Shown piece after piece: positions 13,348 to 54,640 of a stretch of DNA of 64,000 nucleotides; positions within the stretch are counted from its first letter, which is position 1, and each line of letters starts with the position of its first letter. The stretch lies in the NCBI GenBank assembly GCA_029260795.1, contig JAJDCO010000094.1, positions 161,193 through 225,192 on the forward strand. Reading direction: 5' to 3'. The DNA comes from Planctomycetota bacterium. GTDB taxonomy: Bacteria > Planctomycetota > OFTM77. The translations under genes and the position numbers were made by a program. The notes under the pieces were generated by a model. That model was not told the origin of the DNA. It saw only the letters and a program-made list of their open reading frames with translations, and ran no database searches.

Positions 13348-13445
13348 CCAACGGGCCCTTGCGGGAGCGACCCGCCCGGATCGGTCCCAGGTTCAGCATA
13401 CGGGCACGGGCCCGAGCTGGGCAACCACCCTGGCTCAAAGGCAAA

Positions 13446-13475
13446 GCGCCTCGGGGTCGTGTGACTCCGAGGCGC
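13446..13475 (-). terminator. Hairpin downstream of tRNA-Glu (candidate terminator)
   Basis: Inverted repeat GCGCCTCGG ... CCGAGGCGC (9-bp stem, 12-nt loop) immediately 3' of the tRNA on its strand, followed by a modest U-containing tract (CUUUGCCUUUGAG). Confidence 0.3.
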
Positions 13476-13479
13476 TCGT

Positions 13480-13557
13480 TGGTGACCCCGACGGGATTTG
13501 AACCCGTGTTACCGGCGTGAAAGGCCGGTGTCCTGGACCTGACTAGACGACGGGGCC
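13480..13557 (-). tRNA. tRNA-Glu (anticodon UUC), CCA encoded
   Basis: Minus-strand sequence GGCCCCGTCGTCTAGTCAGGTCCAGGACACCGGCCTTTCACGCCGGTAACACGGGTTCAAATCCCGTCGGGGTCACCA folds as a cloverleaf: 7-bp acceptor stem (one G-U), anticodon stem CCGGC/GCCGG with loop CTTTCAC, T-loop TTCAAAT. Confidence 0.9.
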
Positions 13558-26266: not shown

Positions 26267-26274
26267 ACCGAACG

Positions 26275-31084: not shown

Positions 31085-31189
31085 GAACCGCTCCAGGGAG
31101 ATGTCGACGACTGAGAGCACCCCGAGATGGGGGACGCGCTGACGTTCGACGGACAGCTCGGGGCAGATTCAGGCAGCGGCGAGGCTCCC

Positions 31190-33147: not shown

Positions 33148-33181
33148 GGACCATCTCCTCCTCGAGGGTGAGTCTTCTCGT

Positions 33182-34510: not shown

Positions 34511-34578
34511 GGAGCAAGCTCTTCTGGAGGATCAGGACTCGGAAGCGATCGAGTCGATCCCGGGTGACCGGGACAGCG

Positions 34579-36405: not shown

Positions 36406-36515
36406 CCGTCCTTCTCCTCAAATCGATCGGCGTCACGGGGAGGCGCCGAGGTCCGGACCCCGGCGAGCGAGCGAAGTGCCCATTCTACGGTCAACTCGTT
36501 GCCGATGTTGAATCT

Positions 36516-39500: not shown

Positions 39501-39857
39501 GAGCGCCGGAAAGCGTGCATCGATGCCGGTGACGCGCACGTCGTTCGCGCGCCGTTCCCCTCCCGGCACCGATCCGACTCCGCTGAGCCGCAAGGCGGGA
39601 ACCACGCGGAGGTCTCGGAAGCTGGCCGCGAGCTCGTCGGCCAAGGCGGCTCGAAAAAAGCGATCGTGCGACACGAGCACACGATCGGTGCGACCAATCC
39701 GCTGCCGCGCCTGCGATTGCAAGCTCGCCTGCACGGAGTCGCCGACCACCAGGGCACCCACCAAGACGGCGGTTCCGATGGCGGTTCCCAGCAGGACGCC
39801 CAGATGGCTTCGCCAATAGTAGAGCGCGCTGCGGAGAACGAGCCGAAGCCGAGTCAT
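36516..39857 (-). CDS. ABC transporter permease, FtsX/MacB-like, large (two FtsX-type membrane domains with large extracytoplasmic domains)
   Basis: 1113 aa; N-terminal TM, large periplasmic regions, C-terminal 4-TM FtsX-like bundle; 4-nt overlap with the upstream ABC ATPase. Confidence 0.83.
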   Translation of the reverse strand: MTRLRLVLRSALYYWRSHLGVLLGTAIGTAVLVGALVVGDSVQASLQSQARQRIGRTDRVLVSHDRFFRAALADELAASFRDLRVVPALRLSGVGSVPGGERRANDVRVTGIDARFPALGAAAWNGPLPGPRQVLVSERLASQLEVAVGDTILLRVEKPSGLPRDMALATSDDVATALRVEVVAIVTDETFGRFALEADQIPPFNAFVDLDWLQRTVERAGRANLLLVAGASEDSAPASEALDEALAQHWKLEDGELSLHDHESGLLELRSERIFLDPPVEEAVRSGSRSALGILTYFVNELRIGDRATPYSMVAGAGLLAGAPEDFPDWHVLYGTGLANDGTILGRWLATDLGAKAQDRLSIRYFAIGRDRRLVEKEHVFTVGRVTPLEGFAGDPSLMPGFPGLADTEDCRDWEPGIPVDLERIRDEDEAYWDDHHGTPKAFITLETAQGMWGNRFGALTAVRFSETDRTALEQDLVSALRPAALGLFFQDLRGQALASGRATTDFGGLFLGLSSFLLIAAFLLTALLFVFGVEQRASQVGLLLAVGWTPRQVRRLLLGEGLVLAVLGASLGVLGALGYTRLVLGALASVWKEAVASAAISVAISPMTLVLGAGISILAALAALAGTLRRQAKSSARELLGRRGGVGESGGVLSASRRKALVILTLVCVVAAIAIAVAVGPGRGTAAAGAFFGVGALLLMAGLFGSRLLLAGWSSEGLPEKETVGRLGLRNSTRRPGRSLATISLLASGTFLVVAVGANRLGEPEDPTRRDSGTGGFTLQARATIGVLHDLDSQDAIDAYALPKDLLAPGSVVSFRVRDGDEASCLNLNQTQQPRLVGVNPARLAEREAFRFTDHLGLAEGRSPWTLLEQRADGAIPAIGDAASVQWALHKSVGGTIDYLDERGRPFQVRIVGTVANSILQGNLVIGGDHFEELFPSESGYRWFLFDVAPARTDEVERELTRGLADMGLEVTDTAERLAAFNSVQNTYLVIFQMLGGLGLLLGAAGLGTVVLRNVLERRSELALVRAVGYRRSAVRWLVWSEHGALLALGLLSGILAAAVAVWPALADPGAESPWGAAGILVIGVAISGVAWVVAATWLALRGPLLAALRSE

Positions 39858-40582
39858 GCGCCGCTCTCCGCACGCACGAGCAAGCGACCTGCGCGGAGCT
39901 CGCGAATGCTCCCCAGCCGGGACGCGAGATCTTTGGAATGCGTCACACAGACCAACGTCAGCCCTCGCTCTCGACAGAGTCGCTCGAGCAAGTCGGCGAG
40001 GTCATCGGCCGAGCGGGCATCGAGTGACCCCGTCGGCTCATCGGCGAGAAGGATGGACGGCTCGTTCACGAGGGCGCGCACGACCGCGACCCGTTGACAC
40101 TCGCCACCCGAGAGCTGGGCCGGCCGATGATCGAGGCGAGCACTCAGTCCGACGGCGCTCAAGAGCTCGCGGGCGCGCTCGACCGTAGTGGCCCGACTGG
40201 CGCGATCGCGATGCACGAGCGTCGGGACGAGGACATTCTCGAGAGCGCTACATTGAGGCAGAAGATGATGGAGCTGAAAGACGAACCCGACCGCATCGTT
40301 GCGGAAGCGCGCCAAGTCCTCGGCGTCCACGCGCGTCAAGTCGATGCCCGCGACCTGCACCGAGCCCCGCGTGGGAAGCTCGAGCCCGCCGAGGATGTTG
40401 AGGAGCGTGCTCTTTCCCGAGCCCGAAGGCCCGACGATCGCGACCGACTCGCCGCGCGCCACCTCGAGATCGACGCCGCGCAGCACCTCGGTCGTGATCG
40501 AGCCGCGCTGAAACTCCTTGGTCACGCCTTCCAAGTGGATCCAATGCTCTTGTCCGGCACTTGATCGGGTTGGTTCATTCAA
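39854..40582 (-). CDS. ABC transporter ATP-binding protein (LolD/MacB-type)
   Basis: 242 aa; Walker A GPSGSGKST, ABC signature LSGGECQRVAVVRAL, Walker B ILLADEPTGSLD. Confidence 0.9.
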   Translation of the reverse strand: MNEPTRSSAGQEHWIHLEGVTKEFQRGSITTEVLRGVDLEVARGESVAIVGPSGSGKSTLLNILGGLELPTRGSVQVAGIDLTRVDAEDLARFRNDAVGFVFQLHHLLPQCSALENVLVPTLVHRDRASRATTVERARELLSAVGLSARLDHRPAQLSGGECQRVAVVRALVNEPSILLADEPTGSLDARSADDLADLLERLCRERGLTLVCVTHSKDLASRLGSIRELRAGRLLVRAESGA

Positions 40583-40597
40583 GCTCGGGATCTCCGC

Positions 40598-41152
40598 TCA
40601 GCGTTGTTCGGTCTCGGCCGGTCTCTCGATGGACGCCGTCGACTTCTTGGGCGATGGCCCCGGCTTGTAGAGCATCACCAGCATCCCTCCGACTGCGGCC
40701 AACAGGATGCCGAGGAAGAACTGGGGCTTGATGCTCGAGAAGCCAGCGGCCGGGGGATGCAGCGCAAGCGAGACGACCGCGTTCACGACCGGCGCCCCGG
40801 CGAAGATGATCGACATCACGACGGCGGGCTTGCCGTTGGCACCGAAGGCGAGCAGAACGCCGAAGGCACCGATCGCACCGGCGACGCCCGCGACCAGGGA
40901 CCAGGTGATGCCCTTGCCACTCATCGACCAGTCGCTGCCCTTGAGAAGGAGCAGGAGAGCGGGCGCCAAGACGGCGGCGAGGAAGTAGGCGATGCCGACC
41001 CAGAGGAATGCCTTGTAGCGGGCATTGGGATCATTCACCCCCATGGTCGTCTGTCCGGTGTGGAGCAGAATGCCGTAGAGGCCCCAACAGGCGACAGTCA
41101 GCATCGCGTAGGCGAGCCAGAGGTTGCTTTCTTGTCCAGAGCTCCCGGGCAT
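40598..41152 (-). CDS. Hypothetical small integral membrane protein (4-5 TM helices)
   Basis: 184 aa, strongly hydrophobic; 16 nt upstream of the ABC ATPase start; no family recognised. Confidence 0.55.
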   Translation of the reverse strand: MPGSSGQESNLWLAYAMLTVACWGLYGILLHTGQTTMGVNDPNARYKAFLWVGIAYFLAAVLAPALLLLLKGSDWSMSGKGITWSLVAGVAGAIGAFGVLLAFGANGKPAVVMSIIFAGAPVVNAVVSLALHPPAAGFSSIKPQFFLGILLAAVGGMLVMLYKPGPSPKKSTASIERPAETEQR

Positions 41153-41178
41153 GGGGCACGTGTCCTTTCAGTTCATTC

Positions 41179-41670
41179 TCAGTTCCGACGCGCCGACTCA
41201 GGCGTCGTCAGCTTCAGCTCTTTCAATCGACGGCTCGGAGCGGCCTCGAGTGACGCGTCGACGTCCGCTGACATCGGCACGGCGCGAAAGTCGCGATCCC
41301 CGGGTCTCTTCTCGACATGCACGACCGTCATCATCCCGCGAGCGATCTCGGCGCCCGCTTCTCCTCCTTCGCCGATCCGACGGAACAGCACGGCGTGACG
41401 CAGTACCTTGGAGCGCTTCTCCAGGACCACGAGGTGAAGTGAGACGTGATCGAGATATCGGAGCGGCTCGCGATAATCACACTCGGCCCGCACGCGTACC
41501 CACCCTCGCATGACGCCCTCTTCCTCCCAGTGAAGGGCGAGACCGAGCGAGTGGAAGAAATAATGCTCGGTCGCCTCCATGAACCGGAAGTAGTTCGAGA
41601 AGTGCATGATGCCGGCCATGTCGGTCTCGGCAAACTCGACCTGGCGTTGGGTGATGAACTCGTGGGCCAT
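41179..41670 (-). CDS. Hotdog-fold acyl-CoA thioesterase (4-hydroxybenzoyl-CoA thioesterase/YbgC-like)
   Basis: Start set at ATG 41670 (MAHEFITQRQVEFAETDMAGIMHFSNYFRFMEATEHYFF...), the typical 4HBT N-terminal motif; ORF-track start 41904 adds 78 low-complexity residues. Confidence 0.72.
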   Translation of the reverse strand: MAHEFITQRQVEFAETDMAGIMHFSNYFRFMEATEHYFFHSLGLALHWEEEGVMRGWVRVRAECDYREPLRYLDHVSLHLVVLEKRSKVLRHAVLFRRIGEGGEAGAEIARGMMTVVHVEKRPGDRDFRAVPMSADVDASLEAAPSRRLKELKLTTPESARRN

Positions 41671-41731
41671 GTTCACTCGACCGGAGAAAGGGAATCGTTC
41701 GCGCACAACGTGACGCCGACGACCTCGGGGG

Positions 41732-43078
41732 TCAAGCCGATACGGAGCGGCGGCAGAAGGCCTCGAACTCGTCGGCCATTCTCTCCATCGTGAAGTACTC
41801 ACGGGCCGCGCGTTGGCCCGCTGCCGACAAGCGATCGGAGAGGCAGCGGTCTTCGAGGACCCGGCGCAACCCGTCGGCCAGGGAAGCGGTATCGTTGGCT
41901 TCACAGAGCAGGCCCGCCTCGGTCGCCTCGATCAGCTCGAGGAAGGAGCCGTGCCGGGGTTGAACGACCGGAACGCCCGCCGCCCAGGCTTCCACCAGGT
42001 AGAGCCCGAACGACTCGCCATAGGTGGCCGGCACCGACATCACCGACAGCTCGCCGAGGAAGCGCAGCTTCTCCGCTTTGGTGCAGTTCGGAAGCCAGGT
42101 GACCTCGCTGCCGAGACCGGCCGAGCGAAGCTGCTCCTGAAGCTGTCGGACGAATGGCCGGTCCTCGGCCAGCTGCACGCCGGCGACCTGCAACCTCGCC
42201 TCGGTGCCCGAGGCCCGCAAGGCCACGAAGGCCGCGACCAGCCTGTCGAGGCCCTTGTCGGCACACATGCGAGCCAGGTAGCCGATGACTGGCGGACTCG
42301 CATCTCGGGCAGCGGTCGGGATCCCTTCCAGCGCGATTCCATTGTGAATGACCGACACTCGCTCGGGCGGTAGCTGCAGCCGCTCGCTCATCAAGTCGGC
42401 CGTGTAGCGGCTGACGGCGACGAAGGCGTCCAGGTCGCCCGCCCGCCGCTGGAGCTCGCTCCAAGCCTGGTCTCGGTGGACCTTCGGCAGCGCGTCCAAG
42501 AAAGGAGCCTCCCCCTGCAGGGTTCCGACCACAGGGCATTCGATGGCCTCGCGCAGGCGCCGCGCCAACCCGCTGAGCAGGGCATTCGACAGACAGATCA
42601 GGTCAGGGCGCTCGTGATCCCGAAGCCAGGTGATGAGCTCGTCGAGGCCCGCCTGCTGTGGACCGCTCTCACCGCGCAGCATGGCGACCGTCAGGGCTCC
42701 GAGGTCCTTGGCCTCGGTCATCGAGCCGCGTGACGCCGCCCAGCGCAAGAAAGACGGCCGATCGAGCCAGTGACGAACGAATCGAGGCAACCAGTGCCAC
42801 CAACGAAGCCGGTGCTCGAGGTACACGTTCACGCCGCCGAGGAAGACGGGATCCTCCGTCTTCTCCGCAGAGTCGTCCTCGAGGACGAAGGGCAAGTAGA
42901 CGGGAATCATCATCACGTCGTGCCCGCGCGCCCGGAGTGCCCGCACGAGCAGCTCGTCTCGCAAGCAGCTTCCGCAGTAGAAGTGGCCCGTCCCGGGGGT
43001 GATCTGGACGATCTTCAGAGGTGCCGAAGCGCGGTTGGCCTCGAGCGCGACGCGCTCGAGCTCATCGCTGCCCTTCAT
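41732..43078 (-). CDS. Glycosyltransferase family 4 (GT-B, group-1 glycosyl transferase)
   Basis: 448 aa; C-terminal GT4 pattern (VPATYGESFGLYLVEAWAAGVPVV...) with the E-x7-E-type motif. Confidence 0.83.
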   Translation of the reverse strand: MKGSDELERVALEANRASAPLKIVQITPGTGHFYCGSCLRDELLVRALRARGHDVMMIPVYLPFVLEDDSAEKTEDPVFLGGVNVYLEHRLRWWHWLPRFVRHWLDRPSFLRWAASRGSMTEAKDLGALTVAMLRGESGPQQAGLDELITWLRDHERPDLICLSNALLSGLARRLREAIECPVVGTLQGEAPFLDALPKVHRDQAWSELQRRAGDLDAFVAVSRYTADLMSERLQLPPERVSVIHNGIALEGIPTAARDASPPVIGYLARMCADKGLDRLVAAFVALRASGTEARLQVAGVQLAEDRPFVRQLQEQLRSAGLGSEVTWLPNCTKAEKLRFLGELSVMSVPATYGESFGLYLVEAWAAGVPVVQPRHGSFLELIEATEAGLLCEANDTASLADGLRRVLEDRCLSDRLSAAGQRAAREYFTMERMADEFEAFCRRSVSA

Positions 43079-43099
43079 CTCGGCCCACTCCAGACGGCC

Positions 43100-44434
43100 T
43101 CACGCATAACGCGCATTGCGGTGCTCCGAGCGGAAGAAGCGCGGCAACAGCTCATCGATGCGAAGTAGAGCGTCGCGCGTCACGTCAACCGCCTGCTCCG
43201 TCACCTTGAAATCACCCTGCGCCTCGAGCTCGGCCAGAGGCTCGGCGAAGCGTTGGCGCGGATCCTCCCCAAACTTCTGACGGAAGTACTCCAGCGGCAA
43301 GTGGCCGAGCTTGAGCTGCAAGATGAACTCTCGCACGAACTGCTCATCCTTCGTGAGCACCAGCGCCCGATGAATCGGAAGCTCGCCTCGCTCGACGCGT
43401 TCCACGTAGGGCTCGTAACGATGCTCGTTCTGCAGATGAACACCGCCGAGATGGCCGAACGACGACACGCCCAGGCCGATCAGATCTGCGCCCGTCCACA
43501 GCGCATCGCGATACCGGAACTCGATCCCCTCACCCTTCTTGGCCGTGGTGACCGAACCGATCTGGTATCCCGCCCGCTCCAGGGCAGCGTAGGCCTCTTG
43601 AGTCCAGCGTCGCTTGGTGGGCCAGTCGGCGACGGGAGCGACCTGCGTTCCGCCCTCTTGCATGCGCTGATAGATCGTCGTGTTGTACGGGACCTCGAGC
43701 TGATAGATGGTCACGTTGTCCGGCTCGAGCTTCAGCGTCTCCTCGATACAGCGGCGCCAGTTCTCATCCGTCTCGCCGACCATGCCGGCGATCAGATCGA
43801 TGTTGATCTGTTCGAAGCCGACATCCCGCGCCGTCTGGTAGGCGCCGTAGATCTCCTTGGCTCGATGGGCGCGGTTGTTGAGCGCGAGGATCTCGGCATT
43901 GAAGTTCTCGACACCCAGGCTCAGTCGCGTCACACCCAGCTCGTGAAGGACCTCGATCTTCTTCGTCTGCAGCGTGCCCGGCTCACACTCGAAGGTGACC
44001 TCCTCGGCCTCTGACCAGTCGAAGATGTCGCGCAACCCTTCGAACAGGAATCGGAGCTGATCCGGGGAGAGGTAGGACGGCGTGCCACCCCCGAAGTAGA
44101 CGAGCTTCGGTTGGCGACCTACGAGATAGGGCTGCTCGGCGTAGAGCCGTGACTCGGTCAGGACCGCATCGAGGTAGCGACGAACGTCTTGGGCGTTCTT
44201 GTCGGTGTAGACCTTGTAGTAACAGAAGTCGCAGCGCTTTCGGCAGAACGGAATGTGCACGTAGAGACCGAGCATCGGCGGAGACTCGGCCCCTTCCGAG
44301 AGAAGCTGGAGGACTCTCGGGACTTGGTCTTCTCGCCAGAACGAGAAGGGCGGGTAGTTGGCGATGAAGTAGTTACCGACCGTCGTCTCTTCTGTGGAAG
44401 GACCTGGGCTCTTCGGCTCATCGGAGCTCATCAA
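43100..44434 (-). CDS. Radical SAM enzyme, HemN-like (oxygen-independent coproporphyrinogen-III oxidase family; class-C radical SAM methyltransferases share this fold)
   Basis: 444 aa; CxxxCxxC cluster motif (CRKRCDFCYY), GGGTPS motif, C-terminal HemN_C-like region. Confidence 0.83.
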   Translation of the reverse strand: MMSSDEPKSPGPSTEETTVGNYFIANYPPFSFWREDQVPRVLQLLSEGAESPPMLGLYVHIPFCRKRCDFCYYKVYTDKNAQDVRRYLDAVLTESRLYAEQPYLVGRQPKLVYFGGGTPSYLSPDQLRFLFEGLRDIFDWSEAEEVTFECEPGTLQTKKIEVLHELGVTRLSLGVENFNAEILALNNRAHRAKEIYGAYQTARDVGFEQINIDLIAGMVGETDENWRRCIEETLKLEPDNVTIYQLEVPYNTTIYQRMQEGGTQVAPVADWPTKRRWTQEAYAALERAGYQIGSVTTAKKGEGIEFRYRDALWTGADLIGLGVSSFGHLGGVHLQNEHRYEPYVERVERGELPIHRALVLTKDEQFVREFILQLKLGHLPLEYFRQKFGEDPRQRFAEPLAELEAQGDFKVTEQAVDVTRDALLRIDELLPRFFRSEHRNARYA

Positions 44435-45630
44435 CGACCTCGTTTCTTCTCACCGGACTTCTGATCCGACTCACCGAACACGTACAGCAGTCCGTCATTG
44501 GCGCCGATCAGGATGCGACCGCCCGCCACGGCGGGCGAGGAGAAGATCGACTGGCCGATGTCGTACGACCACGTCTCTTCGCCCGTTGCGGCATTCAAGA
44601 CATACAGGCGGCCATCCGCCGAGCCGAAGACCACGCGGTCGCCACAGAGCACCGGCGAGGCGTCGATCTTGCGTCGCGTCTTGAACGCCCACACCTCTTC
44701 GCCATCGGCGAAGCGAACGCAGTGCAGCTTCTTGTCACGACCCCCGAAGTAGACGAGGTCCTCGCCGATCGCGGGTGACGAGAAGAAGGCGTTCCGGCCG
44801 TCGCCGAACGACCAGACCTCCTCGCCTTTGTTCAGATCGAGGCGCACGAACGCGTTGCCGTAGTGGCCGAAGAACGCTTGGTCGCGATCGACTCCGACCG
44901 AGCCCGCGATGTAGCTCTCGGCTCCCATGTCGAGCTGCGACTGGGCTTGCCCCTCGGCGAGGGACACCACGTGCAGGCGAGCGTCACAGCCGCCAAACAC
45001 GATCTGATCGTTCCAAACCGCCGGCGTTCCGTTGACGTAGTTCTCCGTCTCGTAGCGCCACACCGGCTCGCCCGTCTTCGCATCCAGACAGTAGAGAGCG
45101 GAGTCGTAGCTCCCGAACACGACGCGACGGCCCTCAGCCGACTCGAAGAGCGTCGCTCCCCCTTGAACCTTGTCTCCGGTCTCGAACTTCCAGCGCAGAT
45201 CCCCCGTCTTCTTGTCGAGGGCGTAGAAGAAGCCGTCCGTGGAGCCGACGTAGACCGTGTCCCCGCTTACGGTCGGGGGCGCCTCGATCATGTCCTCCGT
45301 CGCGAATCGCCAGAGGCCGCGGCCGGTCTCGAAGTCGATCGCGTGGAGGTGGTAGTCGTCGGAGCCCACAAACACTCGCCCGCCCTCGATCACTGGAGAA
45401 GAGGCGATGGCGGCTTCCGTTGCGTACGTCCAGAGCAGTCGAGGCTCCGCTGGGAGTCGCCCCGAGGCGACTCCGGTCTGACTCGGATTCCCGCGGAAGC
45501 TGGGCCACTCGCTCGAGGTCGGGGAGGCAACCGGCTTCGCCGTCGGCTCTTGAGCGCAGATGGCTCCGGACACCAGCATGCCGACCATCAGGAGCGCCAA
45601 CGCCAGAATGCGATCGCCTCGTCGATTCAT
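44431..45630 (-). CDS. PQQ-like beta-propeller repeat protein (paralog 5)
   Basis: Start set at ATG 45630 (MNRRGDRILALALLMVGMLVSGAICA signal); WPSFRGNPSQTG motif; 4-nt overlap with the HemN-like gene. Confidence 0.8.
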   Translation of the reverse strand: MNRRGDRILALALLMVGMLVSGAICAQEPTAKPVASPTSSEWPSFRGNPSQTGVASGRLPAEPRLLWTYATEAAIASSPVIEGGRVFVGSDDYHLHAIDFETGRGLWRFATEDMIEAPPTVSGDTVYVGSTDGFFYALDKKTGDLRWKFETGDKVQGGATLFESAEGRRVVFGSYDSALYCLDAKTGEPVWRYETENYVNGTPAVWNDQIVFGGCDARLHVVSLAEGQAQSQLDMGAESYIAGSVGVDRDQAFFGHYGNAFVRLDLNKGEEVWSFGDGRNAFFSSPAIGEDLVYFGGRDKKLHCVRFADGEEVWAFKTRRKIDASPVLCGDRVVFGSADGRLYVLNAATGEETWSYDIGQSIFSSPAVAGGRILIGANDGLLYVFGESDQKSGEKKRGR

Positions 45631-45702
45631 CTCCACCTCACTCGTCAACCGGGTCTTTCGGGGGTTCATCGGGTCTAAACCATGATCTGCCAAGGTGCAA
45701 GC

Positions 45703-46881
45703 TCAACGAGTGCCATGGAGGGCCTCGCCGTACAAGGCCCGCAGCGAAGCCCGATCGACCGGCCGCGGATTGAAGCCGCCCGTCCACTGCTCGGCGGCCA
45801 GCTCGGCGAGCCCATCCAAGTCGGATTCAGCCACGCCGCATTCGGCCAACGATTCGGGCATCCCCGCCGCGTCCAGAAGCGCACCGATCCGTCGAGCCAG
45901 GCGATCGGCGGACTCGGAAGCCTGTCGGTCCCCGACAGCTGATGGATCGAAGAGCTCGGCGTAGAGCCGGGCGACGGCAGGATCCTCGGCATTGAAGCGC
46001 ACCACCGTGGGCAGCATCAGCCCGACGGCTCGACCGTGCTCGGTGTCGAAGCGAGCGGTGAGCGGATTGGCGAGCGCATGCGCCGCGCCCAGCATGCTCG
46101 CCTCGATCGCGAGACCCGCGAAAGCCGAGGCGAGGAGCATTCCACCGCGAGCCGTGTGGTCGCTCGGCGCCGAGAGCACCGTCTCCAAGTGTCGATTCAC
46201 AAGGCGAAATGCCTCCTTCGCCCAGAGCGACGAGACGGGATTTCGGCGGCTGGTGACGAAGGACTCGACGGCGTGCGTCAGGGTATCGATACCGGTGTGG
46301 GCGGTAACGTGAGTCGGCATCGTCTCGGTCAGCACCGGATCGAGCAGGGCGATGCGCGGCTGGGCGCTCGGGTCCCCGCACGCCATCTTGCGGTGGGATT
46401 CCAGCTGCGAGATCAGCGCGAAGGATTGTACCTCGCTGCCCGTGCCTGCGGTCGTCGGGACCGCGATCATCGGGAGGAGAGGCGTCGCGACCGGCCCACT
46501 TCGCCAGTAGTCCTTCATGCTTCCACCATTGGTCAGCAGGAAGTTCGCACCCTTGGCGGTATCGAGGCTGCTCCCGCCACCGAGGCCGAGGATCAGGTCC
46601 GGAGCGTGTGGCGCCGCGGCCGCTCGACAGCGCTCGACATCCTCGGTGGTCGGATTCTGATGAACCTCCGAGAAGACGGCGGTCGGCAAGCCGGCGGCCT
46701 CGAGCGCGGCTCGCACGGGCTCGACGTGCCCCGCGGCGACCAGACCGGCATCACTCACGAGCAGGACGCGCCGCGCGCCCAGCGATCGACAGAGCTCGGG
46801 AATCCGGGCGGCCGCGCCTACACCGAAGACGAGACGCGGGCCGAGCGCGAGATCGAATTCGGCAGGCGGATCCGGAGTCAT
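45703..46881 (-). CDS. Iron-containing (group III) alcohol dehydrogenase
   Basis: Start set at ATG 46881 (MTPDPPAEFDLALGPRLVFGVG...); Fe-ADH motifs (GLGGGSSLDTAKG, metal-binding His region HTGIDTLTHAVESF). Confidence 0.85.
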   Translation of the reverse strand: MTPDPPAEFDLALGPRLVFGVGAAARIPELCRSLGARRVLLVSDAGLVAAGHVEPVRAALEAAGLPTAVFSEVHQNPTTEDVERCRAAAAPHAPDLILGLGGGSSLDTAKGANFLLTNGGSMKDYWRSGPVATPLLPMIAVPTTAGTGSEVQSFALISQLESHRKMACGDPSAQPRIALLDPVLTETMPTHVTAHTGIDTLTHAVESFVTSRRNPVSSLWAKEAFRLVNRHLETVLSAPSDHTARGGMLLASAFAGLAIEASMLGAAHALANPLTARFDTEHGRAVGLMLPTVVRFNAEDPAVARLYAELFDPSAVGDRQASESADRLARRIGALLDAAGMPESLAECGVAESDLDGLAELAAEQWTGGFNPRPVDRASLRALYGEALHGTR

Positions 46882-46891
46882 GGACGGTCGA

Positions 46892-48334
46892 TCACCATTG
46901 GGCGGCACGCTGGATGGCCCGACGCGCGTAGAGGAACTCGAACAGGTTGCCTTCGTGGGGCTGATCCCACTCGACATGGCCGGTCGGAACGGGACCCAGG
47001 TTGAGCCGATGGATCTCCGGCGAGCGCAGCAGCCGGCTCTGCAGCACGGTGTTCTTCGTGATCGCCGAGACGACCAAGGACGGGCCGAGCGTCTCGATCC
47101 ACTCGTCTTCGGGCAGCTCGACCACACTGACGTACGGAAACAGGAACTCGGTGTTGGCAAGTGGGTGATCGAAGCGTTGGCAGCGGACCACGGTCGGAAG
47201 CAGGTAGGTGGAGCCCTCGACCTCGACTCGGCGCGGCCCGGTTCGAAATCGTGCGGTCAGGTCTTCGGCGCCGCCTTGGGCCAGACCGGCATCGATCGTA
47301 CTGTCAATCCACTCGGCGACCTTGGGGTTGGCGAAAGCCGAGAGCTGCGCCTCGGGATCGGCCGCCGGTCGAGCTTCGATGCGGGCGAGGCGCTCGGCGA
47401 GCGCCTCGGCGATCTCGTCGCCGTGCGCGGGCACGATGATGGCCGAGGCGTTGACGCAGCTGCGCCCGCCGTTCGCCGCGACCGAGTCGGCGAGGACGTC
47501 CAGGTGATCTCGCCACCGCTCGATCTCGTCGGACCCGACGAGCACCTTGCTCCAGCCGGGACCATGGATCTCGATGCCCGGGTTCTGCGCATACTGAGCG
47601 GTCGTCTTCGCATCACCGAAGATCAAGCCGCGTCCACACTGCTCGAGGATCGACGCCGCGCCCTCATGATCGGTCGGGTAGTAGCTGAAGGCCTCGCGGG
47701 GCGCCCCCGCCTCGATGAAGGCCTGCATGATGCGGAGGGGTGTCCAGGGCTCCTCGCGGCCCGGCTTGAGCACGACCGGTATCTTGAGCGCCAGCGCCGG
47801 AATCCAGAGCGAGTTCACGCCCGGCGAGTTGCTCGGGAGCACGATGCCCAGGCTGTTCGTCTGCGGAACGTAGGAGACCGGGACGCCGTCCTGCTCGCCG
47901 ATCCCCGCCTCGAGCACCGACAGATCGAGGCCCCGTGTGAGGCCTTTCAGGATGCGCGGCATCTCCGCGAAGACGCTGTGGATCTTGTCCATGTTGCGGC
48001 GACACAGCACATGGGGAAGACCGCTGGTAGCGCTGAGCGTCTCGACGTACTGCTCGGGACCCTGTCGATCGCCCTGGTCGTTGAGCGGCAGCTCGGCCTG
48101 CATGAACAGCTCACCGGCTCGGCGACAGACGTCGATCATCTCGACGACGCTGAGGTCGGCGAATGGATCGGGACTGCGCTCTTGCTTACGCAGATCGCGA
48201 CGCACCAGGCCGGCATTGACCTGGCTGACCAGGGCGAGGGGTGTGCCATCGCGATGCGAGCGGACCTCGTTGGTCTCGAGGCTCTCATAGAACTGGCCCG
48301 CACGCAGTGCCGGAATGGGAATCGGCTTCGACAT
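46892..48334 (-). CDS. Aldehyde dehydrogenase-superfamily protein, acyl-CoA reductase (LuxC)-like
   Basis: Start set at ATG 48334 (MSKPIPIPALRAGQFYESLE...); ALDH-like fold with candidate catalytic Cys (GGRSCVNAS). LuxC-like assignment is by family recollection and the LuxE/PaaK-like neighbour. Confidence 0.75.
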   Translation of the reverse strand: MSKPIPIPALRAGQFYESLETNEVRSHRDGTPLALVSQVNAGLVRRDLRKQERSPDPFADLSVVEMIDVCRRAGELFMQAELPLNDQGDRQGPEQYVETLSATSGLPHVLCRRNMDKIHSVFAEMPRILKGLTRGLDLSVLEAGIGEQDGVPVSYVPQTNSLGIVLPSNSPGVNSLWIPALALKIPVVLKPGREEPWTPLRIMQAFIEAGAPREAFSYYPTDHEGAASILEQCGRGLIFGDAKTTAQYAQNPGIEIHGPGWSKVLVGSDEIERWRDHLDVLADSVAANGGRSCVNASAIIVPAHGDEIAEALAERLARIEARPAADPEAQLSAFANPKVAEWIDSTIDAGLAQGGAEDLTARFRTGPRRVEVEGSTYLLPTVVRCQRFDHPLANTEFLFPYVSVVELPEDEWIETLGPSLVVSAITKNTVLQSRLLRSPEIHRLNLGPVPTGHVEWDQPHEGNLFEFLYARRAIQRAAQW

Positions 48335-48339
48335 GGTGC

Positions 48340-49416
48340 TCAGTACACTCCTTCGACGATCTTCTCTTCGTTGGCCCGAAAGGGTCGGACCTCGCCGACG
48401 CCATCCCACGGGTATTCGTCGTAGGGCCGGCGCCGGATGGCCTCATCTCGCTCGAGAAAGCGCGGCATGAAGAACTCGCGCGTCAGCGTCGTGAGCTCGA
48501 CTCGACCCCAGGCATCGTAGTCGACCAGCTCGTCGGTCGCTTCGGGCTGAACCACGCGCAGAACCGCCCGTGGCTGAGGCGCATGATAGGTCACCGAGTA
48601 GCCGTCCTCGCGCAGGGTCGGCTTGGAGTGCGCCAGACCCATCAGCGTGTTGCCGTAGGTCGGAACGAGCTTGACCTCGTCCTCGAGCACCTCCTCGACC
48701 AGGAAGCGCAGGATCTGCGGGGACATCTCGGTGCCTCCACAGAAGACTCCCTGGATGCCGGCTTCGGGGATCGAGACGCGCTCGCTGAGCGCCTCGAGGA
48801 GCTTGGGCGTCGTGAACAGCGCACTCACCTTCCGATGCTTCAAGATCGTGACGGCCTGATCGACGACGTGGACCATGTAGGCCTTGGCTTGATCCCCATG
48901 CCCTTCACGAATCAGCCGCTTCACCCAGCGCGGATCGAGATCGATGAAGTAGCAAGAGCAGCCGCGGACGTTGGCGAGGTGCTCGATCGAGAGGCGAAGA
49001 CGTCGCGGCCCGGTCGGGCCCATCATCAGCCAGTAGTGGTTCCGCGGGAACGCGTCGTCGTCGAGCGTCTCCGAGAACTCGCTGTAGTCGATCTTGTAGT
49101 CTTCCCAGCCGATCCGCTGCTTGGGCATGCCGGTCGTGCCGCCGGTCTCGAAGATGGTGAACGGCTTCCCCGCGTAGGCTTTCGGCGCAAAGCGCTCCGG
49201 TTGCTCGACGCGCAGGTGCTCCCCATCGAAGTGGCCGAAGCGGACGAGATCGTCGAAGCCTTGCACTTCGTGCGCGGGATCCCAGCCCGCCTTCTGTGCC
49301 CACTCGAGCCAGAAGGGGCTGCCCGTCTCGGGCGAGAAGTGCCACGGGACGATCTCGCGGATGTGCGCATCCAGCTGGGCGCGAGCTTGCTCCGGATCCT
49401 GGGGACGCGTGCTCAT
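48340..49416 (-). CDS. LuxE/PaaK-family adenylate-forming enzyme (acyl-protein synthetase / phenylacetate-CoA ligase-like)
   Basis: 358 aa; PaaK-type nucleotide-binding motif FETGGTTGMPK; 4-nt overlap with the upstream symporter. Confidence 0.72.
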   Translation of the reverse strand: MSTRPQDPEQARAQLDAHIREIVPWHFSPETGSPFWLEWAQKAGWDPAHEVQGFDDLVRFGHFDGEHLRVEQPERFAPKAYAGKPFTIFETGGTTGMPKQRIGWEDYKIDYSEFSETLDDDAFPRNHYWLMMGPTGPRRLRLSIEHLANVRGCSCYFIDLDPRWVKRLIREGHGDQAKAYMVHVVDQAVTILKHRKVSALFTTPKLLEALSERVSIPEAGIQGVFCGGTEMSPQILRFLVEEVLEDEVKLVPTYGNTLMGLAHSKPTLREDGYSVTYHAPQPRAVLRVVQPEATDELVDYDAWGRVELTTLTREFFMPRFLERDEAIRRRPYDEYPWDGVGEVRPFRANEEKIVEGVY

Positions 49417-51020
49417 TGAGGGTTCTCCACGATGCGTGCCGCCTCATGGACGGCGAAGAAACGATCGACGACGGCGGGGCTGGGGGGCTTCGTCACGAGC
49501 GAGACTCCGACCAGAGTCAGCGCGGAAGCGGCAAAGATATAGACGACGGGCAGCACGCCACCGAGGACGAGGTACTCGTCGGCACCGCGCAGCGTTCCCG
49601 CGATCGCGGGCGCGATGAGCCCGTCATAGAAGAAGGCCGACCACACTCCGACCATCACGAGGACGGAAGCGATAGCGCCTGCCTTGGTCGTGCGTCGCCA
49701 GTACACGGCACAGAACACGAGCGGGAACAGGCTGGCGAAGCCGCTGAAGCACCAGACCGCGAGGTCGAAGATGTTGGGCGGCTTGAGCAGCGACAGAAAG
49801 TAGGTGATCGCGACGATGGCGACGATGAAGCCGCGTCCCAAGAGGAGCTTCCCCCGATCAGTGAGACGGTCCTCACCCACCGCGTGCAGGACGATGTCGT
49901 GCGTGAACATCGTGCCCAGGCAAACGAACTGCGAGTCCATCGAGGACATGATCGCCGCCAGGATGCCCGCCGTGAGGAGCCCGGTCAGAATCGGATTGTG
50001 GAGCAGCTGGTTCACCATCAACGACAAGACGGCGTTCGGGGTGGGCGCCTTGATCCCGTGGCCGGCCGCCCAGATGCCGATCAAGATGCAGGGCACCCAC
50101 ACGATCATGATGAAGATCGGGTGCGCGATGATACTGAGCCGGAAGGTCTTCGCGCTGCGAGCGGTCAGCCAATGCTGGAAGAGGTGCGGAAACATCCCCA
50201 CCGAGAACGGGACCAGCATGTAGCTGAGGAACTGGGCCTTCCCGATCATGCCGTCACGGGTGAGATGATCCTTCGCGTTGTCCTTCACCGCTTGGGTCGC
50301 CGCTTCGAGTCCCCCGAGCCGATCGGAGATCAGCAGGAAGGCGACCACTCCCATGATCATGAAGACCAACGTCTGGAAGGTGTTCGCCCAGGCGGCGCCG
50401 CGCAGCCCGCCACCCGAGATGTAGAAGAGCACTACGGCGCAGACGACCAGGCCTGAGAGCCAGGGGGGCACCGAGCCCACCATGATCATCTTGCCGGCCG
50501 GGTTCAGACGCCCTTCGAAGACGTCCGGGAACATGCCCTGCGTCACGCCTTCCATCACCACTCCGGCGCCCAGCACCCCGATCAAGAGGTACGGGATCAC
50601 CAGCAGGACGAGGATCGGAAACAGTAGGTAACCCAGGCCGTTCGATTCGAAGCGATCGCGGAAGTACTGGATCTGCGTGACGTAGCCGTAGCGCTTGCCG
50701 ATCGCCCACAGCTTGATGCCGACCACGAAGAAGATCAGCGAGTGGATGATGCCCGACGAGGACGCCATCAATCCGTATACGCCGACGCCGAGCTGGTAGG
50801 CCTTGCCCGTCGATCCGACCAGTGCGAACGCGGTCATGGTCGTGCCGAACACGCTCATCAGGAGCAGGAACGGACCGATCGAGCGCGTGGCGACGAAGTA
50901 ATCCGAGCTCGTCCCGCGAAAGAAGCGCTTCGAAACGACGCCGAGCCCGATCAGCAGCATCAGGTACCCGGCGATGACCCACAAGGGACCCAAGTCGCCG
51001 ATCACGGCCAGCGGAGTCAT
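49413..51020 (-). CDS. Sodium:solute symporter family (SSF) transporter
   Basis: Start set at ATG 51020 (MTPLAVIGDLGPLWVIAGYL...); ~13 TM helices with SSF-like organisation. Confidence 0.87.
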   Translation of the reverse strand: MTPLAVIGDLGPLWVIAGYLMLLIGLGVVSKRFFRGTSSDYFVATRSIGPFLLLMSVFGTTMTAFALVGSTGKAYQLGVGVYGLMASSSGIIHSLIFFVVGIKLWAIGKRYGYVTQIQYFRDRFESNGLGYLLFPILVLLVIPYLLIGVLGAGVVMEGVTQGMFPDVFEGRLNPAGKMIMVGSVPPWLSGLVVCAVVLFYISGGGLRGAAWANTFQTLVFMIMGVVAFLLISDRLGGLEAATQAVKDNAKDHLTRDGMIGKAQFLSYMLVPFSVGMFPHLFQHWLTARSAKTFRLSIIAHPIFIMIVWVPCILIGIWAAGHGIKAPTPNAVLSLMVNQLLHNPILTGLLTAGILAAIMSSMDSQFVCLGTMFTHDIVLHAVGEDRLTDRGKLLLGRGFIVAIVAITYFLSLLKPPNIFDLAVWCFSGFASLFPLVFCAVYWRRTTKAGAIASVLVMVGVWSAFFYDGLIAPAIAGTLRGADEYLVLGGVLPVVYIFAASALTLVGVSLVTKPPSPAVVDRFFAVHEAARIVENPQ

Positions 51021-51292
51021 GCCGCACCTCCCGAGCTCGCGTCGTCTTCTTGGGCCGCCCACGCTTCGAGCTCACTCGGCCAGGCGAAGCGCACCACCAA
51101 GGCCCAGACGATCCCGGCAGCAATCGAGATCCCGGCGTGGTAGGCCAGCCCCAGCGGCAGAAAGCCGAAGATCAGCGAGTCGTTCGACCAGTTCCACAGG
51201 TCCTGGCGCAGGATGGCGAGCACCCCGACCAACGACCACACGATCCACCACGCCGTTGGGCGACGGCTTCCACTCATTCCATCGACTCCCAT
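51017..51292 (-). CDS. Small membrane protein, DUF3311-like (class commonly encoded upstream of sodium:solute symporters)
   Basis: 91 aa; two hydrophobic helices (WWIVWSLVGVLAIL..., GLAYHAGISIAAGIVWALVV); ATGA overlap with the symporter start. Confidence 0.55.
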   Translation of the reverse strand: MGVDGMSGSRRPTAWWIVWSLVGVLAILRQDLWNWSNDSLIFGFLPLGLAYHAGISIAAGIVWALVVRFAWPSELEAWAAQEDDASSGGAA

Positions 51293-51441
51293 TCCGGAGC
51301 ACCGGCGATCGAGGAAGTCGAGGGGCCTGGCTCCTTCCCGATCGAGCGCGCACGTCAGTGACGTCCCTCGCGGACGATTGGCGCGTAATCTAGCGAAAAC
51401 AGCCCCGCTTCGCGACGATGTTCGGACGGCACGCGGTCAAT

Positions 51442-51463
51442 CGACCTCCCACCCGATTCGGGG
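51442..51463 (+). repeat. Degenerate copy of dispersed repeat module B (CGACCTCCCACCCGA-TTCGGGG)
   Basis: Matches the core of the modules at 51664-51716, 63442-63479 and 63586-63667 with a short internal deletion. Confidence 0.5.
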
Positions 51464-51566
51464 TCTGTCCAAGAGGTGTCCGAACAAGTGGTCCCGTGAG
51501 ATTCACGAAGGCCACTTCGGACCTTTGGCTTTCAGCCGGCACTTCGACCCTTCGACGAGCCGAATC

Positions 51567-51592
51567 GGAGGGCGGACTTCAGTCCGCTGGAA
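51567..51592 (+). repeat. Dispersed repeat module A (GGAGGGCGGACTTCAGTCCGCTGGA; contains palindrome GCGGACT-TC-AGTCCGC)
   Basis: Near-identical copy at 63524-63550; partial copy at 63491-63506; related GGAGGGCGGACTTCCGCC at ~17240. Confidence 0.6.
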
Positions 51593-51663
51593 GGTCGATC
51601 GACATCAGGCCGCTGCGGTGCGAGTCTAGGGGCGGCCGATGCCCCGACGAACCGACTCGAGGC

Positions 51664-51716
51664 TGACGACCTCCCACCCGAATGAATTCGGGCCTCCGAG
51701 GGGCGGTCTGGAAGCA
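51664..51716 (+). repeat. Dispersed repeat module B (TGACGACCTCCCACCCGAATGAATTCGGGCCTCCGAGGGGCGGTCTGGAAGCA; contains palindrome CCCGAAT-GA-ATTCGGG)
   Basis: Copies at 63442-63479 and, expanded by internal tandem duplication, at 63586-63667; same orientation and same A-then-B order at both loci. Confidence 0.6.
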
Positions 51717-51762
51717 GCCGGCTGTCCGTAATCATCGTCGGTCGACCGCCGGCTTCCCGTCC

Positions 51763-53157: not shown

Positions 53158-53365
53158 CGGGATTCTCCTGGAATTCGTCGCAGCGGCGTTGGGCGAGCCG
53201 CGATCATCGCAAAGGAACGCGGGTCCGAGAAGCGCCGTTCGGCCTCGAGGTGACGCCACGACGTTCCCACCACGGCTCTCGACGGAGCCCCTTGCCCCGA
53301 CTGCGGTGCCCGAGGACACTAGGGGCCGGTCCGACGCGCTCGCCCACCGATTCGGGAGGCTGTCC

Positions 53366-54640
53366 GTGCTGTTTTCGCAGGTGATGCTCTTTTCCGTCCT
53401 CCTAGGGACCTCGACCATCCGCGACGAAGAAGCGGCCGCTTGGCCGGACTTTCGTGGACCGCGCGGCGACGGGCACGCCATCGCCACTGCTCGCCCGCCC
53501 GTCGAATGGAGCGAAGAGCGGTACGTGACCTGGAAGACACCCGTTCACGGGCTCGGCTGGTCGTCGCCGGTCGTCGTCGACGGTCAGGTGTGGATGACCA
53601 CCGGCACCGAAGATGGGCACCGACTCTCGGTGGTTGCCGTCGATCTCGCGTCGGGCGCGGTCGTGCACGATCGCGTGCTGTTCGAGGTCGATGAGCCCCA
53701 GTTCCGGAATGCGCTCAATAGCCATGCCTCCCCCTCACCCGTCGCGATGCCTGGCCGCGTGTTCGTCCACTTCGGCGCCTACGGAACGGCGGCCTTGGAC
53801 TCCCGGACGGGCGAGACGGTTTGGCAACGACGCGATCTCCCCTGCCAGCACCTGATGGGACCCGGTTCCTCTCCCGTGCTGGTCGACGGTCGCCTCGTGC
53901 TCACTTTCGACGGGGCCGATCGTCAAGTGGTCGTGGGACTGGACCCGGCGACTGGCGAGACGCTCTGGGAGACGCCGCGCTCGACCGACTTCACGAACAT
54001 CATCCCGGACCAACGCAAGGCTTACGGAACGCCCTTCGTCGCCGAGGTCGACGGCCAGCGGCAGCTGGTGAGCGTGGGCGCGCAGGCGGCGTTCGGACTC
54101 GATCCCCGCACCGGCGTCGAGCTGTGGCAGGTGCGAATCCCCGGCTACTCCATGTCCTCGCGCCCCTTCGCGGGCCGCGGCCTGACCTTCATCAACACCG
54201 GCTTCGATCGACCGCAGCTCTGGGCAATTCGCCTGGGTGGTCTGGGCGATGTGACCGAATCCCACGTAGCATGGAAGGAGACGCGCAGCCTCCCGACCAT
54301 CGCCTCGAAGGTGCTCGTCGACGACCGAATCTACCTGGTCAGTGACGGAGGCGTGCTGGGCTGTTTGAAGGCGGACACCGGCGAGACGATCTGGCGCGAG
54401 CGCATCGGGGGCCGCTTCTGCGCCTCGCCGATCGTGGCCGGCGGACACGTCTACTTCTTCGACCGCGAGGGCATGGCCACGGTGATCGTACCCGAGGACG
54501 AGTATCGCCTCGTCGCCCAGAACAGCCTCGAGGCGGGCTGCATGGCATCGCCCGCCGTCATCGGAAACGCCCTCATCGTCCGCACGACCTCCCACCTCTA
54601 TCGGATCGAGGGCCCGAAGCGGGCCGACTCGAAACGCTAG
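53366..54640 (+). CDS. PQQ-like beta-propeller repeat protein (paralog 6)
   Basis: Start tentatively GTG 53366, preceded by GGGAGG 6 nt upstream (ATG 53384 is an alternative); WPDFRGPRGDG motif; propeller repeats. Confidence 0.78.
   Translation: MLFSQVMLFSVLLGTSTIRDEEAAAWPDFRGPRGDGHAIATARPPVEWSEERYVTWKTPVHGLGWSSPVVVDGQVWMTTGTEDGHRLSVVAVDLASGAVVHDRVLFEVDEPQFRNALNSHASPSPVAMPGRVFVHFGAYGTAALDSRTGETVWQRRDLPCQHLMGPGSSPVLVDGRLVLTFDGADRQVVVGLDPATGETLWETPRSTDFTNIIPDQRKAYGTPFVAEVDGQRQLVSVGAQAAFGLDPRTGVELWQVRIPGYSMSSRPFAGRGLTFINTGFDRPQLWAIRLGGLGDVTESHVAWKETRSLPTIASKVLVDDRIYLVSDGGVLGCLKADTGETIWRERIGGRFCASPIVAGGHVYFFDREGMATVIVPEDEYRLVAQNSLEAGCMASPAVIGNALIVRTTSHLYRIEGPKRADSKR

Follow-up and report, generated by a model that had tools for sequence, protein, structure and literature searches.

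What reaction is carried out by the products of three genes at 45703-49416 of a 64,000-nucleotide stretch from a Planctomycetota bacterium (assembly GCA_029260795.1, contig JAJDCO010000094.1; this whole stretch is called the window below)? An earlier description made without database searches, the sequence-only reading, had seen in them a LuxC-like acyl reductase, a LuxE/PaaK-like adenylating enzyme and an iron-dependent alcohol dehydrogenase (Fe-ADH), preceded by a sodium:solute symporter (SSS) pair, and had suggested aldehyde or alcohol production. The layout was described correctly: three co-directional, tightly packed open reading frames (ORFs) on the minus strand encode an adenylating enzyme, an aldehyde dehydrogenase (ALDH)-like protein and an Fe-ADH, and an SSS permease gene (PF00474) and a DUF3311 gene (PF11755) lie ahead of them. 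The Lux labels did not hold. Judging from homology and by analogy with related systems, we propose, with a probability of about 0.68, that the first two enzymes together form a carboxylic acid reductase of the two-component EhpF/EhpG, GriC/GriD type, which uses ATP and NAD(P)H, and that the third is an iron-dependent aldehyde reductase. The five genes are, from the upstream end:

51017-51292, minus strand: DUF3311 small membrane protein, a symporter subunit (PF11755), gene 1 of the operon; alternative start at 51277
49413-51020, minus strand: SSS permease, 535 aa (PF00474)
48340-49416, minus strand: adenylating enzyme of the EhpF/GriC type, 358 aa, ANL N-terminal domain only
46892-48334, minus strand: ALDH-fold reductase of the EhpG/GriD type, 480 aa; ATG at 48334, 5 nt past the upstream stop
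45703-46881, minus strand: group III Fe-ADH/aldehyde reductase, 392 aa; ATG 10 nt past the upstream stop

Start and stop codons overlap in an ATGA at both the DUF3311/SSS and the SSS/adenylase junctions, and the SSS, DUF3311 and adenylase genes are translationally coupled. The start of the Fe-ADH gene was corrected to the ATG at 46881, instead of the TTG at 47160 that opens the longest ORF. Third-position GC is 0.76-0.87 in all genes, which is typical of real genes at a genome GC of 65%. Around 40 ORFs, picked by third-position GC across the whole 64-kb window, were scanned with Pfam; neither a LuxD-like ORF nor a luciferase-like protein was found among them, in line with the absence of luxA and luxB reported by the sequence-only reading.

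The adenylating enzyme most closely resembles EhpF. A phmmer comparison with EhpF of Pantoea agglomerans, a 'phenazine antibiotic biosynthesis protein' in the PDB (3L2K/3HGU), gave E = 7e-42, with residues 18-358 aligned to 23-366, and a profile built from 20 homologues recovered EhpF among PDB sequences at E = 1.3e-52. Foldseek, run with an AlphaFold2 model (pLDDT 75.6), ranked EhpF structures first (E ~1e-23) and PaaK-family ligases in a second tier (E 1e-12 to 1e-13). The adenylase and EhpF are co-terminal, both ending in ...EGVY, and the ANL C-terminal domain is therefore missing; the AMP-binding_C_2 domain that completes the two-domain architecture of PaaK is absent from the 358-aa protein. 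In ANL enzymes, the C-terminal domain performs CoA or carrier ligation. By the example of its family, the adenylase would form an acyl-adenylate without the usual thioester-forming second half-reaction. The motif FETGGTTGMPK, which had suggested a PaaK-type enzyme, is present as the P-loop at residues 89-99 and is invariant in the 20 homologues; we take it to be the general ANL P-loop consensus, with nothing specific to PaaK.

Family models point in the same direction. The only Pfam match of the adenylase at E<=10 was PF00501 (AMP-binding; 28.7 bits, below the gathering score), and no LuxE or PaaK family match above cutoff was obtained from Pfam or NCBIfam. PF04443 (LuxE) and, for the reductase, PF05893 (LuxC) gave no match at E<=10, a level at which the speed filters of HMMER may hide very weak matches; the LuxC-like and LuxE-like labels were accordingly dropped. 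All NCBIfam matches of both proteins were far below the respective cutoffs. In profile searches of the adenylase and reductase families against PDB sequences, no Lux protein was recovered, and the adenylase profile did not recover PaaK. From these sequence comparisons, the enzyme is identified as a full-length EhpF homologue, an ANL enzyme without the C-terminal domain, and not as PaaK. A chance neighbourhood of an ordinary PaaK- or F390-synthetase-type ligase with a conventional aldehyde dehydrogenase would account for the JGI label of homologues ('PaaK-like adenylate-forming protein'), for PaaK-family enzymes being the second-best structural neighbours and for a weak N-terminal match to the NCBIfam F390 synthetase model (28.9 bits, with a cutoff of 458.7). 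It is effectively refuted by the missing AMP-binding_C_2 domain and the end of the protein exactly at the end of EhpF, by a fold search that favours EhpF over PaaK by about ten orders of magnitude, and by a pairing with the ALDH-like protein that is kept across domains of life.

The ALDH-like features of the second protein were borne out by PF00171 (Aldedh), its only Pfam match at E<=10 (55.7 bits). More informative was BLASTP, which aligned residues 30-480 with residues 35-446 of an ehpG homologue from an E. coli phenazine plasmid (locus L006; E 3e-33, 24% identity), and an ALDH-like neighbour in the haloarchaeon Halalkalicoccus matched at E 1e-33. The L006 gene, annotated 'aldehyde dehydrogenase family protein', immediately follows the ehpF homologue on the E. 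coli plasmid, and its equivalent in Proteus has been named ehpG (PMC11278526). The AlphaFold2 model of the reductase (pLDDT 89.6) has an ordinary ALDH fold, with TM ~0.75 to many ALDHs, and Foldseek against the PDB returned ordinary ALDHs only and nothing more specific. Together, the alignments identify the protein as an EhpG homologue.

Its active site sets it apart from aldehyde oxidases. Cys293 and Asn169, which we take to be the catalytic Cys and the oxyanion Asn of the ALDH fold, are invariant across the EhpG-like family, whereas the Glu of the 'LEAGGKS' motif of KauB aligns with an invariant His257 in the reductases of the Planctomycetes-Verrucomicrobia-Chlamydiae (PVC) superphylum. Other EhpG-like proteins have Q, Y, R or L in this column, and never Glu. 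In ALDHs this Glu is the general base, expected to be necessary for hydrolysis of the thioacyl-enzyme; without it the thioacyl-enzyme should therefore not be hydrolysed, which fits a reductase or acyl acceptor and not an aldehyde oxidase. Retention of Cys and Asn with loss of the general-base Glu would thus be the family-defining feature of EhpG/GriD-type reductases. The protein also bears a C-terminal PHEGN motif. The Arg of KPGREEP (at 190), which we equate with ALDH residue 195, might speculatively hint at the use of NADPH.

The third protein, called an Fe-ADH by the sequence-only reading, matches PF00465 (166.5 bits) and PF25137 (130.6 bits), both above the gathering scores. Among solved structures, it is closest to methanol dehydrogenase, 1,3-propanediol oxidoreductase and lactaldehyde reductase (E 1e-47 to 1e-56). 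GGGSS at 101, D199-x3-H203, H268 and H282 recur at the aligned positions of the NAD-dependent methanol dehydrogenase 8zrl; D199, H203, H268 and H282 are presumably the metal ligands, and GGGS the nucleotide-binding motif. By these matches and motifs the protein is a canonical group III Fe-ADH.

These assignments suggest a four-step route. The Na+-coupled symporter would import a carboxylic acid, and the single-domain adenylase, acting like its family, would convert this to an acyl-adenylate. The acyl group would then pass to Cys293 of the ALDH-fold partner, where NAD(P)H would reduce the thioester to an aldehyde, as the conserved residues and the example of GriC/GriD suggest. In the last step, the Fe-ADH, whose family is clear, would reduce the aldehyde to a primary alcohol. 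The opposite direction has to be weighed here: the Fe-ADH and the ALDH-like protein could oxidise an alcohol via the aldehyde to an acid, which the adenylase would activate for ligation or catabolism. Fe-ADHs are reversible, the closest solved relatives of this one include methanol dehydrogenases, and the ALDH-like protein matches the general Aldedh model. Nevertheless, the residue that aligns with the general-base Glu is replaced family-wide, the adenylase has lost the domain that does CoA or carrier ligation, the gene order transporter, adenylase, reductase, alcohol dehydrogenase mirrors a reductive sequence, and GriC/GriD act reductively. We consider the oxidative direction highly improbable.

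The sequence-only reading would have been refuted by a true phenylacetate-CoA ligase and a conventional aldehyde dehydrogenase without conserved pairing; what we found instead is an adenylase that is not such a ligase and a pair that recurs in distant lineages. We located 80 loci with the adenylase in GTDB. Of the 69 PVC loci with enough flanking sequence, 51 have the reductase gene directly downstream of the adenylase; the Fe-ADH gene is the next after the reductase gene in 41 of 47, and an SSS gene immediately precedes the adenylase in 31 of 64. Beyond these, the adenylase-ALDH pair is adjacent in five unrelated lineages. It is found in E. coli/Pantoea phenazine clusters, adjoins isochorismatase and anthranilate-synthase-family genes in Burkholderia ubonensis and DAHP (3-deoxy-D-arabino-heptulosonate 7-phosphate) synthase and pabB genes in Streptomyces goshikiensis, and in Halalkalicoccus again has an SSS gene upstream. 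In this last locus (L008 5508-9566, plasmid 2 of Halalkalicoccus jeotgali), the trio of SSS, EhpF-like and ALDH-like genes has as neighbours a short-chain dehydrogenase/reductase, an IclR regulator and a primary-amine oxidase. Two Streptomyces plasmids lack the ALDH partner and have a type I polyketide synthase (PKS) gene after the adenylase. Distant relatives also contain fusions of EhpF-like proteins to a class-III aminotransferase (P0336, 824 aa) or a zinc-dependent alcohol dehydrogenase (P0372, 725 aa); both fusion partners consume aldehydes, which supports a family that makes them.

The PVC branch itself is large. Relatives of the adenylase form at least 8000 clusters at 90% identity, mostly from metagenome-assembled genomes (MAGs). 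The best 120 are 71-88% identical to the window protein and come from MAGs of Planctomycetota, Phycisphaerae and Verrucomicrobiota, where their annotation is hypothetical or 'PaaK-like'. For the reductase, identity is 61-67% over a cluster number of similar scale, and some of these clusters stem from MAGs that bear the label Armatimonadota or Omnitrophica. Searched in a library with clusters at 50% identity, the EhpF family as a whole yields only 218 clusters at E<=1e-30. Taken together, these counts make the PVC branch very populous yet slow-evolving.

Several observations weigh against the proposed two-component reductase. In approximately one quarter of the PVC loci, the adenylase is alone among unrelated genes, with no reductase or Fe-ADH gene nearby, and it may therefore also work with other partners. 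The identity of 70-88% that the adenylase keeps across phyla is unusual for a tailoring enzyme of secondary metabolism. The reductase is only 24-31% identical to the EhpG-type homologues with which it was compared. Finally, the reaction direction of an Fe-ADH is not readable from its sequence.

Solitary adenylases about 70% identical to the window protein were seen in L068 (9998-11068), L066, L076, L079, L080 and L088, with no reductase or Fe-ADH gene within 10 kb. The neighbours in L068 include a DUF7133-HEAT-cytochrome c gene (upstream), a tetratricopeptide repeat gene, thiE and pdxJ; in the window, a 942-aa multi-cytochrome-c protein that also has a PA14 domain, and after it a DUF7133 protein, are encoded at 23438-27753 on the plus strand.

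How far does the gene set extend? The sequence-only reading was right that the module is real and missed that it belongs to a longer operon: counting the module, at least 12 minus-strand genes follow one another with overlaps or with gaps of at most 61 nt, and the operon, of 12 to 15 genes, spans 31882-51292 (minus strand). This surrounding, uncharacterised operon is a more interesting finding than the three-gene module. Downstream of the Fe-ADH gene it contains:

44431-45630, minus strand: secreted PQQ_2/BamB-like beta-propeller (PF13570 202 bits, PF13360 164 bits)
43100-44431, minus strand: HemN-like radical S-adenosylmethionine (SAM) enzyme (PF04055 and PF06969), with CRKRCDFC at 63 (CxxxCxxC) and GGGTP at 114
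41732-43078, minus strand: family 4 glycosyltransferase (GT4; PF00534, PF13439)
41179-41670, minus strand: 4HBT-fold thioesterase, YbgC/FadM/MenI-like (PF13279 42.8 bits; weak NCBIfam matches), syntenic in related loci
40598-41152, minus strand: 184-aa hydrophobic, probably membrane, protein with no Pfam or NCBIfam match
39854-40582, minus strand: LolD/MacB-like ABC ATPase (PF00005; LolD model 252 bits, below cutoff)
36516-39857, minus strand: duplicated FtsX/MacB-type permease, 1113 aa (PF02687 and PF12704)
34579-36405, minus strand: PQQ_2 beta-propeller protein (PF13360 61 bits)
33182-34510, minus strand: flavin-dependent halogenase-like/QhpG-like monooxygenase (PF04820 92 bits), with GAGPAG at 16 and WFWYIP at 222
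31882-33291, minus strand: PQQ_2 beta-propeller protein (PF13360 87.5 bits); the 5' end of the ORF overlaps the flavoenzyme gene and its true start is uncertain

The gene order is syntenic in Planctomycetota (L009, L060, L089), Phycisphaeraceae (L001), Opitutia (L062, L071), Terrimicrobiaceae (L047) and a MAG labelled Armatimonadota (L091). The propeller at 44431-45630, whose hydrophobic N-terminus ILALALLMVGMLVSGAICAQEP resembles a signal peptide when judged by eye, is syntenic in loci of Planctomycetota, Phycisphaerae and Verrucomicrobiota; its model PF13570 (Beta-prop_ACSF4) we take to represent the propeller that is fused to an adenylating enzyme in animal ACSF4. The position of the radical SAM gene is conserved in related loci at 51-74% protein identity, and the NCBIfam models hemN, STM4012 and ChuW/HutW all match it below cutoff. 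The GT4 gene is syntenic in Planctomycetota, Opitutia and Terrimicrobiaceae, and the 184-aa hydrophobic protein is syntenic in related loci at 50-82% identity. The stop of the ABC ATPase gene overlaps the start of the permease gene, and L089 and L060 carry the same 1113-aa permease gene at the equivalent position. Copies of the flavoenzyme that are 47-55% identical occur in the same operon of L027, L032, L036, L047, L062, L071 and L084, and a Trp_halogenase-family gene takes this position in L090. The best NCBIfam matches of the window flavoenzyme were CmlS (195 bits), QhpG (122 bits) and LodB (93 bits), all below cutoff; its WFWYIP presumably corresponds to the halogenase signature WxWxIP. 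Verrucomicrobiota of the Chthoniobacterales type have a compact version that runs two propellers, major facilitator superfamily (MFS) transporter, adenylase, reductase, Fe-ADH, propeller, radical SAM enzyme, flavoenzyme, propeller.

We found no description of this PVC operon in the literature. The ladderane, hopanoid, menaquinone (futalosine), mycofactocin, pyrroloquinoline quinone (PQQ) and carotenoid-glycoside pathways were considered and rejected, because their gene complements differ from the operon. Protein-quinone maturation as in quinohemoprotein amine dehydrogenase was rejected as the principal explanation as well: that system uses a SPASM-type radical SAM enzyme, and the one encoded here is HemN-like, although no search aimed at a small precursor-peptide gene was made. 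Horizontal transfer of the region or a mobile island was likewise rejected, since GC is flat at 0.63-0.68 across it. Within this operon, which is kept across the PVC superphylum, the three-gene module most likely serves as the reductive arm in the cytoplasm.

The downstream genes bring back the fatty-acid implication of the Lux labels. A LuxC/LuxE-type reductase would turn fatty acids freed by the thioesterase into aldehydes and alcohols, perhaps for an envelope glycolipid that the GT4 enzyme would glycosylate and the MacB-like system export. The two-step chemistry would be identical, the protein sizes match those of LuxE (~370 aa) and LuxC (~480 aa), and the YbgC/FadM-like thioesterase, the glycosyltransferase, the small hydrophobic protein and the LolD/MacB-like exporter all suit lipid handling. 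However, the LuxC and LuxE models do not match at E<=10, the nearest characterised relatives use aromatic acids, and the adenylase is coupled to a solute symporter, which would be needless for fatty acids made in the cell. Moreover, the compact Verrucomicrobiota operon (L003/L004, L090) keeps the module without the GT4 and thioesterase genes. We therefore regard a fatty acid reductase as very unlikely. Of the proposal of aldehyde or alcohol production, the logic of adenylase, ALDH-fold reductase and Fe-ADH survives, and the implied fatty acid substrate is improbable given the aromatic substrates of the relatives.

The same genes could instead serve an endogenous tailoring pathway, in which the acid is an intermediate of the operon's own making: the thioesterase would release an aryl- or acyl-CoA, the radical SAM and flavin enzymes would modify it, and the module would convert COOH to CH2OH, as in griseoluteic acid biosynthesis, while the symporter supplied another precursor or had another role. 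The characterised or annotated relatives all lie in biosynthetic clusters, the operon holds typical tailoring enzymes and an exporter, and a PaaK-type ligase follows the cluster in L001. On the other hand, no scaffold genes (chorismate-utilising, PKS or nonribosomal peptide synthetase) were found in or beside the operon. The pabB/pabC-like pair of the window, a chorismate-binding enzyme and a class IV aminotransferase at 10007-12387 (minus strand), is unlinked to the operon, whose nearest gene is ~24 kb away, and the junction of transporter and adenylase is the most constant feature of the locus. We thus hold endogenous tailoring to be unlikely and prefer reduction of an imported acid.

Which acid this would be can be narrowed only in part. 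Our best guess is an aromatic or otherwise small soluble carboxylate; an aromatic one is favoured tentatively, at somewhat less than even odds, because of the known substrates of the family, the contexts of the relatives, the type of MFS transporter and the presence of thioesterase and halogenase-like genes. All non-PVC contexts with a recognisable pathway involve chorismate-derived aromatic acids. The transporters themselves speak less clearly. The SSS permease and the DUF3311 protein match PF00474 (116.6 bits) and PF11755 (32.9 bits) above the gathering scores, and many related loci likewise have the DUF3311 gene ahead of the SSS gene. In the examined Verrucomicrobiota loci (L003/L004, L090), an MFS transporter stands in for the SSS permease; among NCBIfam models, this MFS transporter comes closest to the aromatic acid/H+ symporter family. 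Against an aromatic substrate stand the score of that match, only 75-78 bits with a cutoff of 418, and the NCBIfam models nearest to the SSS permease, PanF, PutP and MctP, all matched below cutoff, which describe carriers of aliphatic solutes.

The abundance of propellers invites a further idea. Six PQQ_2/BamB-like propeller genes lie within a 27-kb part of the window, at 27871-29166 (plus), 29810-31120 (minus), 31882-33291 (minus), 34579-36405 (minus), 44431-45630 (minus) and ~53350-54640 (plus). The operon, with or without its GT4, thioesterase and MacB exporter genes, might make or recycle a small aromatic aldehyde or alcohol that acts as a new cofactor or redox shuttle for these orphan PQQ-like propellers. 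We think this quite unlikely; if true, it would provide a candidate ligand for the 'PQQ-like' propellers that are abundant in these bacteria. More broadly, few proteins of Planctomycetota and Verrucomicrobiota are as conserved as this one branch of the two-component carboxylate reductases. Once its substrate is identified, thousands of genes would gain a function in aquatic and soil bacteria that are abundant and mostly uncultured, and the module could supply a carrier-free carboxylate reductase for biocatalysis.

Upstream of the operon, a 470-nt untranslated leader (51293-51762) separates it from an ORF at 51763 to ~53150 (minus strand) with a lipoprotein-signal-like N-terminus (…LLLSPLSCSQ) and a HEAMH motif that suggests a zinc metalloprotease; this ORF has no Pfam match and no homologue in the closest relative, L009. 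A riboswitch/Rfam search of the whole window and the leader matched only one tRNA elsewhere, the leader is not conserved in L009, and a scan for promoters and terminators gave signals no higher than the shuffled background. Further away, a tRNA gene (13483-13557) stands beside a tyrosine recombinase/integrase gene (12421-13347) on the minus strand (12421-13557), with sulfatase and N6/N4 DNA methylase genes nearby; the recombinase may mark an integration site or simply be of the XerC/D type.

The closest known system is EhpF/EhpG of the D-alanylgriseoluteic acid phenazine pathway of Pantoea agglomerans Eh1087 (structures 3HGU, 3HGV and 3L2K). The likeness comprises full-length homology of the adenylases, with the same truncated ANL architecture, and an ALDH-fold partner that is encoded immediately downstream and aligns end to end. 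EhpF is said to have been called 'atypical' by Bera et al. in 2010 for its missing C-terminal domain, and reportedly was proposed to take a carboxylate to the aldehyde via an acyl-adenylate. Griseoluteic acid, made from phenazine-1,6-dicarboxylate by EhpF-O, bears a hydroxymethyl group (PMC3175449). We infer that this group derives from one carboxylate, by the same COOH to CHO to CH2OH logic. The differences are considerable: the window proteins are ~35% (adenylase) and 24% (reductase) identical, EhpG has Gln at the position of the general-base Glu where the window reductase has His, and the window locus contains no phenazine core genes. In addition, the window pair is coupled to a solute symporter and an Fe-ADH, and its operon is chromosomal and phylum-spanning, whereas theirs is a plasmid-borne antibiotic cluster.

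GriC/GriD of grixazone biosynthesis in Streptomyces griseus likewise consist of an AMP-binding and an ALDH-family protein, a likeness drawn by function and not by sequence. According to a passage in PMC10179220, citing Suzuki 2007, GriC (AMP-binding) turns 3-amino-4-hydroxybenzoate into acyl-AMP, which GriD reduces to the aldehyde. Unlike the acid proposed for the window, this substrate is produced within the cluster itself, and there is no dedicated transporter or Fe-ADH. Streptomyces relatives of the window adenylase carry the NCBI name 'arylcarboxylate reductase'.

Other systems share chemistry or fold. In LuxC/LuxE, a small adenylating enzyme activates the carboxylate, and an ALDH-fold Cys protein takes the acyl group and reduces it with NADPH to the aldehyde; the LuxE and LuxC Pfam families belong to the same clans (ANL, ALDH-like) as the folds of the adenylase and the reductase. 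The two-step logic from acid to aldehyde is therefore alike. Unlike LuxC/LuxE, the window pair has no match to PF05893 or PF04443, no luxD, luxA or luxB was found in the window, and LuxC/LuxE use myristate whereas the nearest relatives of the window pair use aromatic acids. The single-polypeptide carboxylic acid reductases (CARs) of Nocardia and Mycobacterium, with adenylation, carrier and reductase domains (A-PCP-R), use ATP and NADPH to convert acids to aldehydes, which usually become alcohols in vivo; they depend on a phosphopantetheinyl carrier and an SDR-type reductase domain. The net reaction proposed here would be the same, but no carrier domain was found and the window reductase has the ALDH fold. 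PaaK-family aryl-CoA ligases (PaaK1, BT_0428, NatL2, AjiA1) provide the next-closest solved fold for the N-terminal domain of the adenylase (Foldseek E ~1e-12) and differ from it by having a C-terminal domain. To our knowledge, neither Pfam nor NCBIfam has a model dedicated to the GriC/GriD and EhpF/EhpG type of reductase, and only a few antibiotic pathways are known to contain one. What the present locus adds to them is a strongly conserved pair in a syntenic operon, a variant of the GriC/GriD-EhpF/EhpG reductase that is coupled to a transporter and an Fe-ADH.

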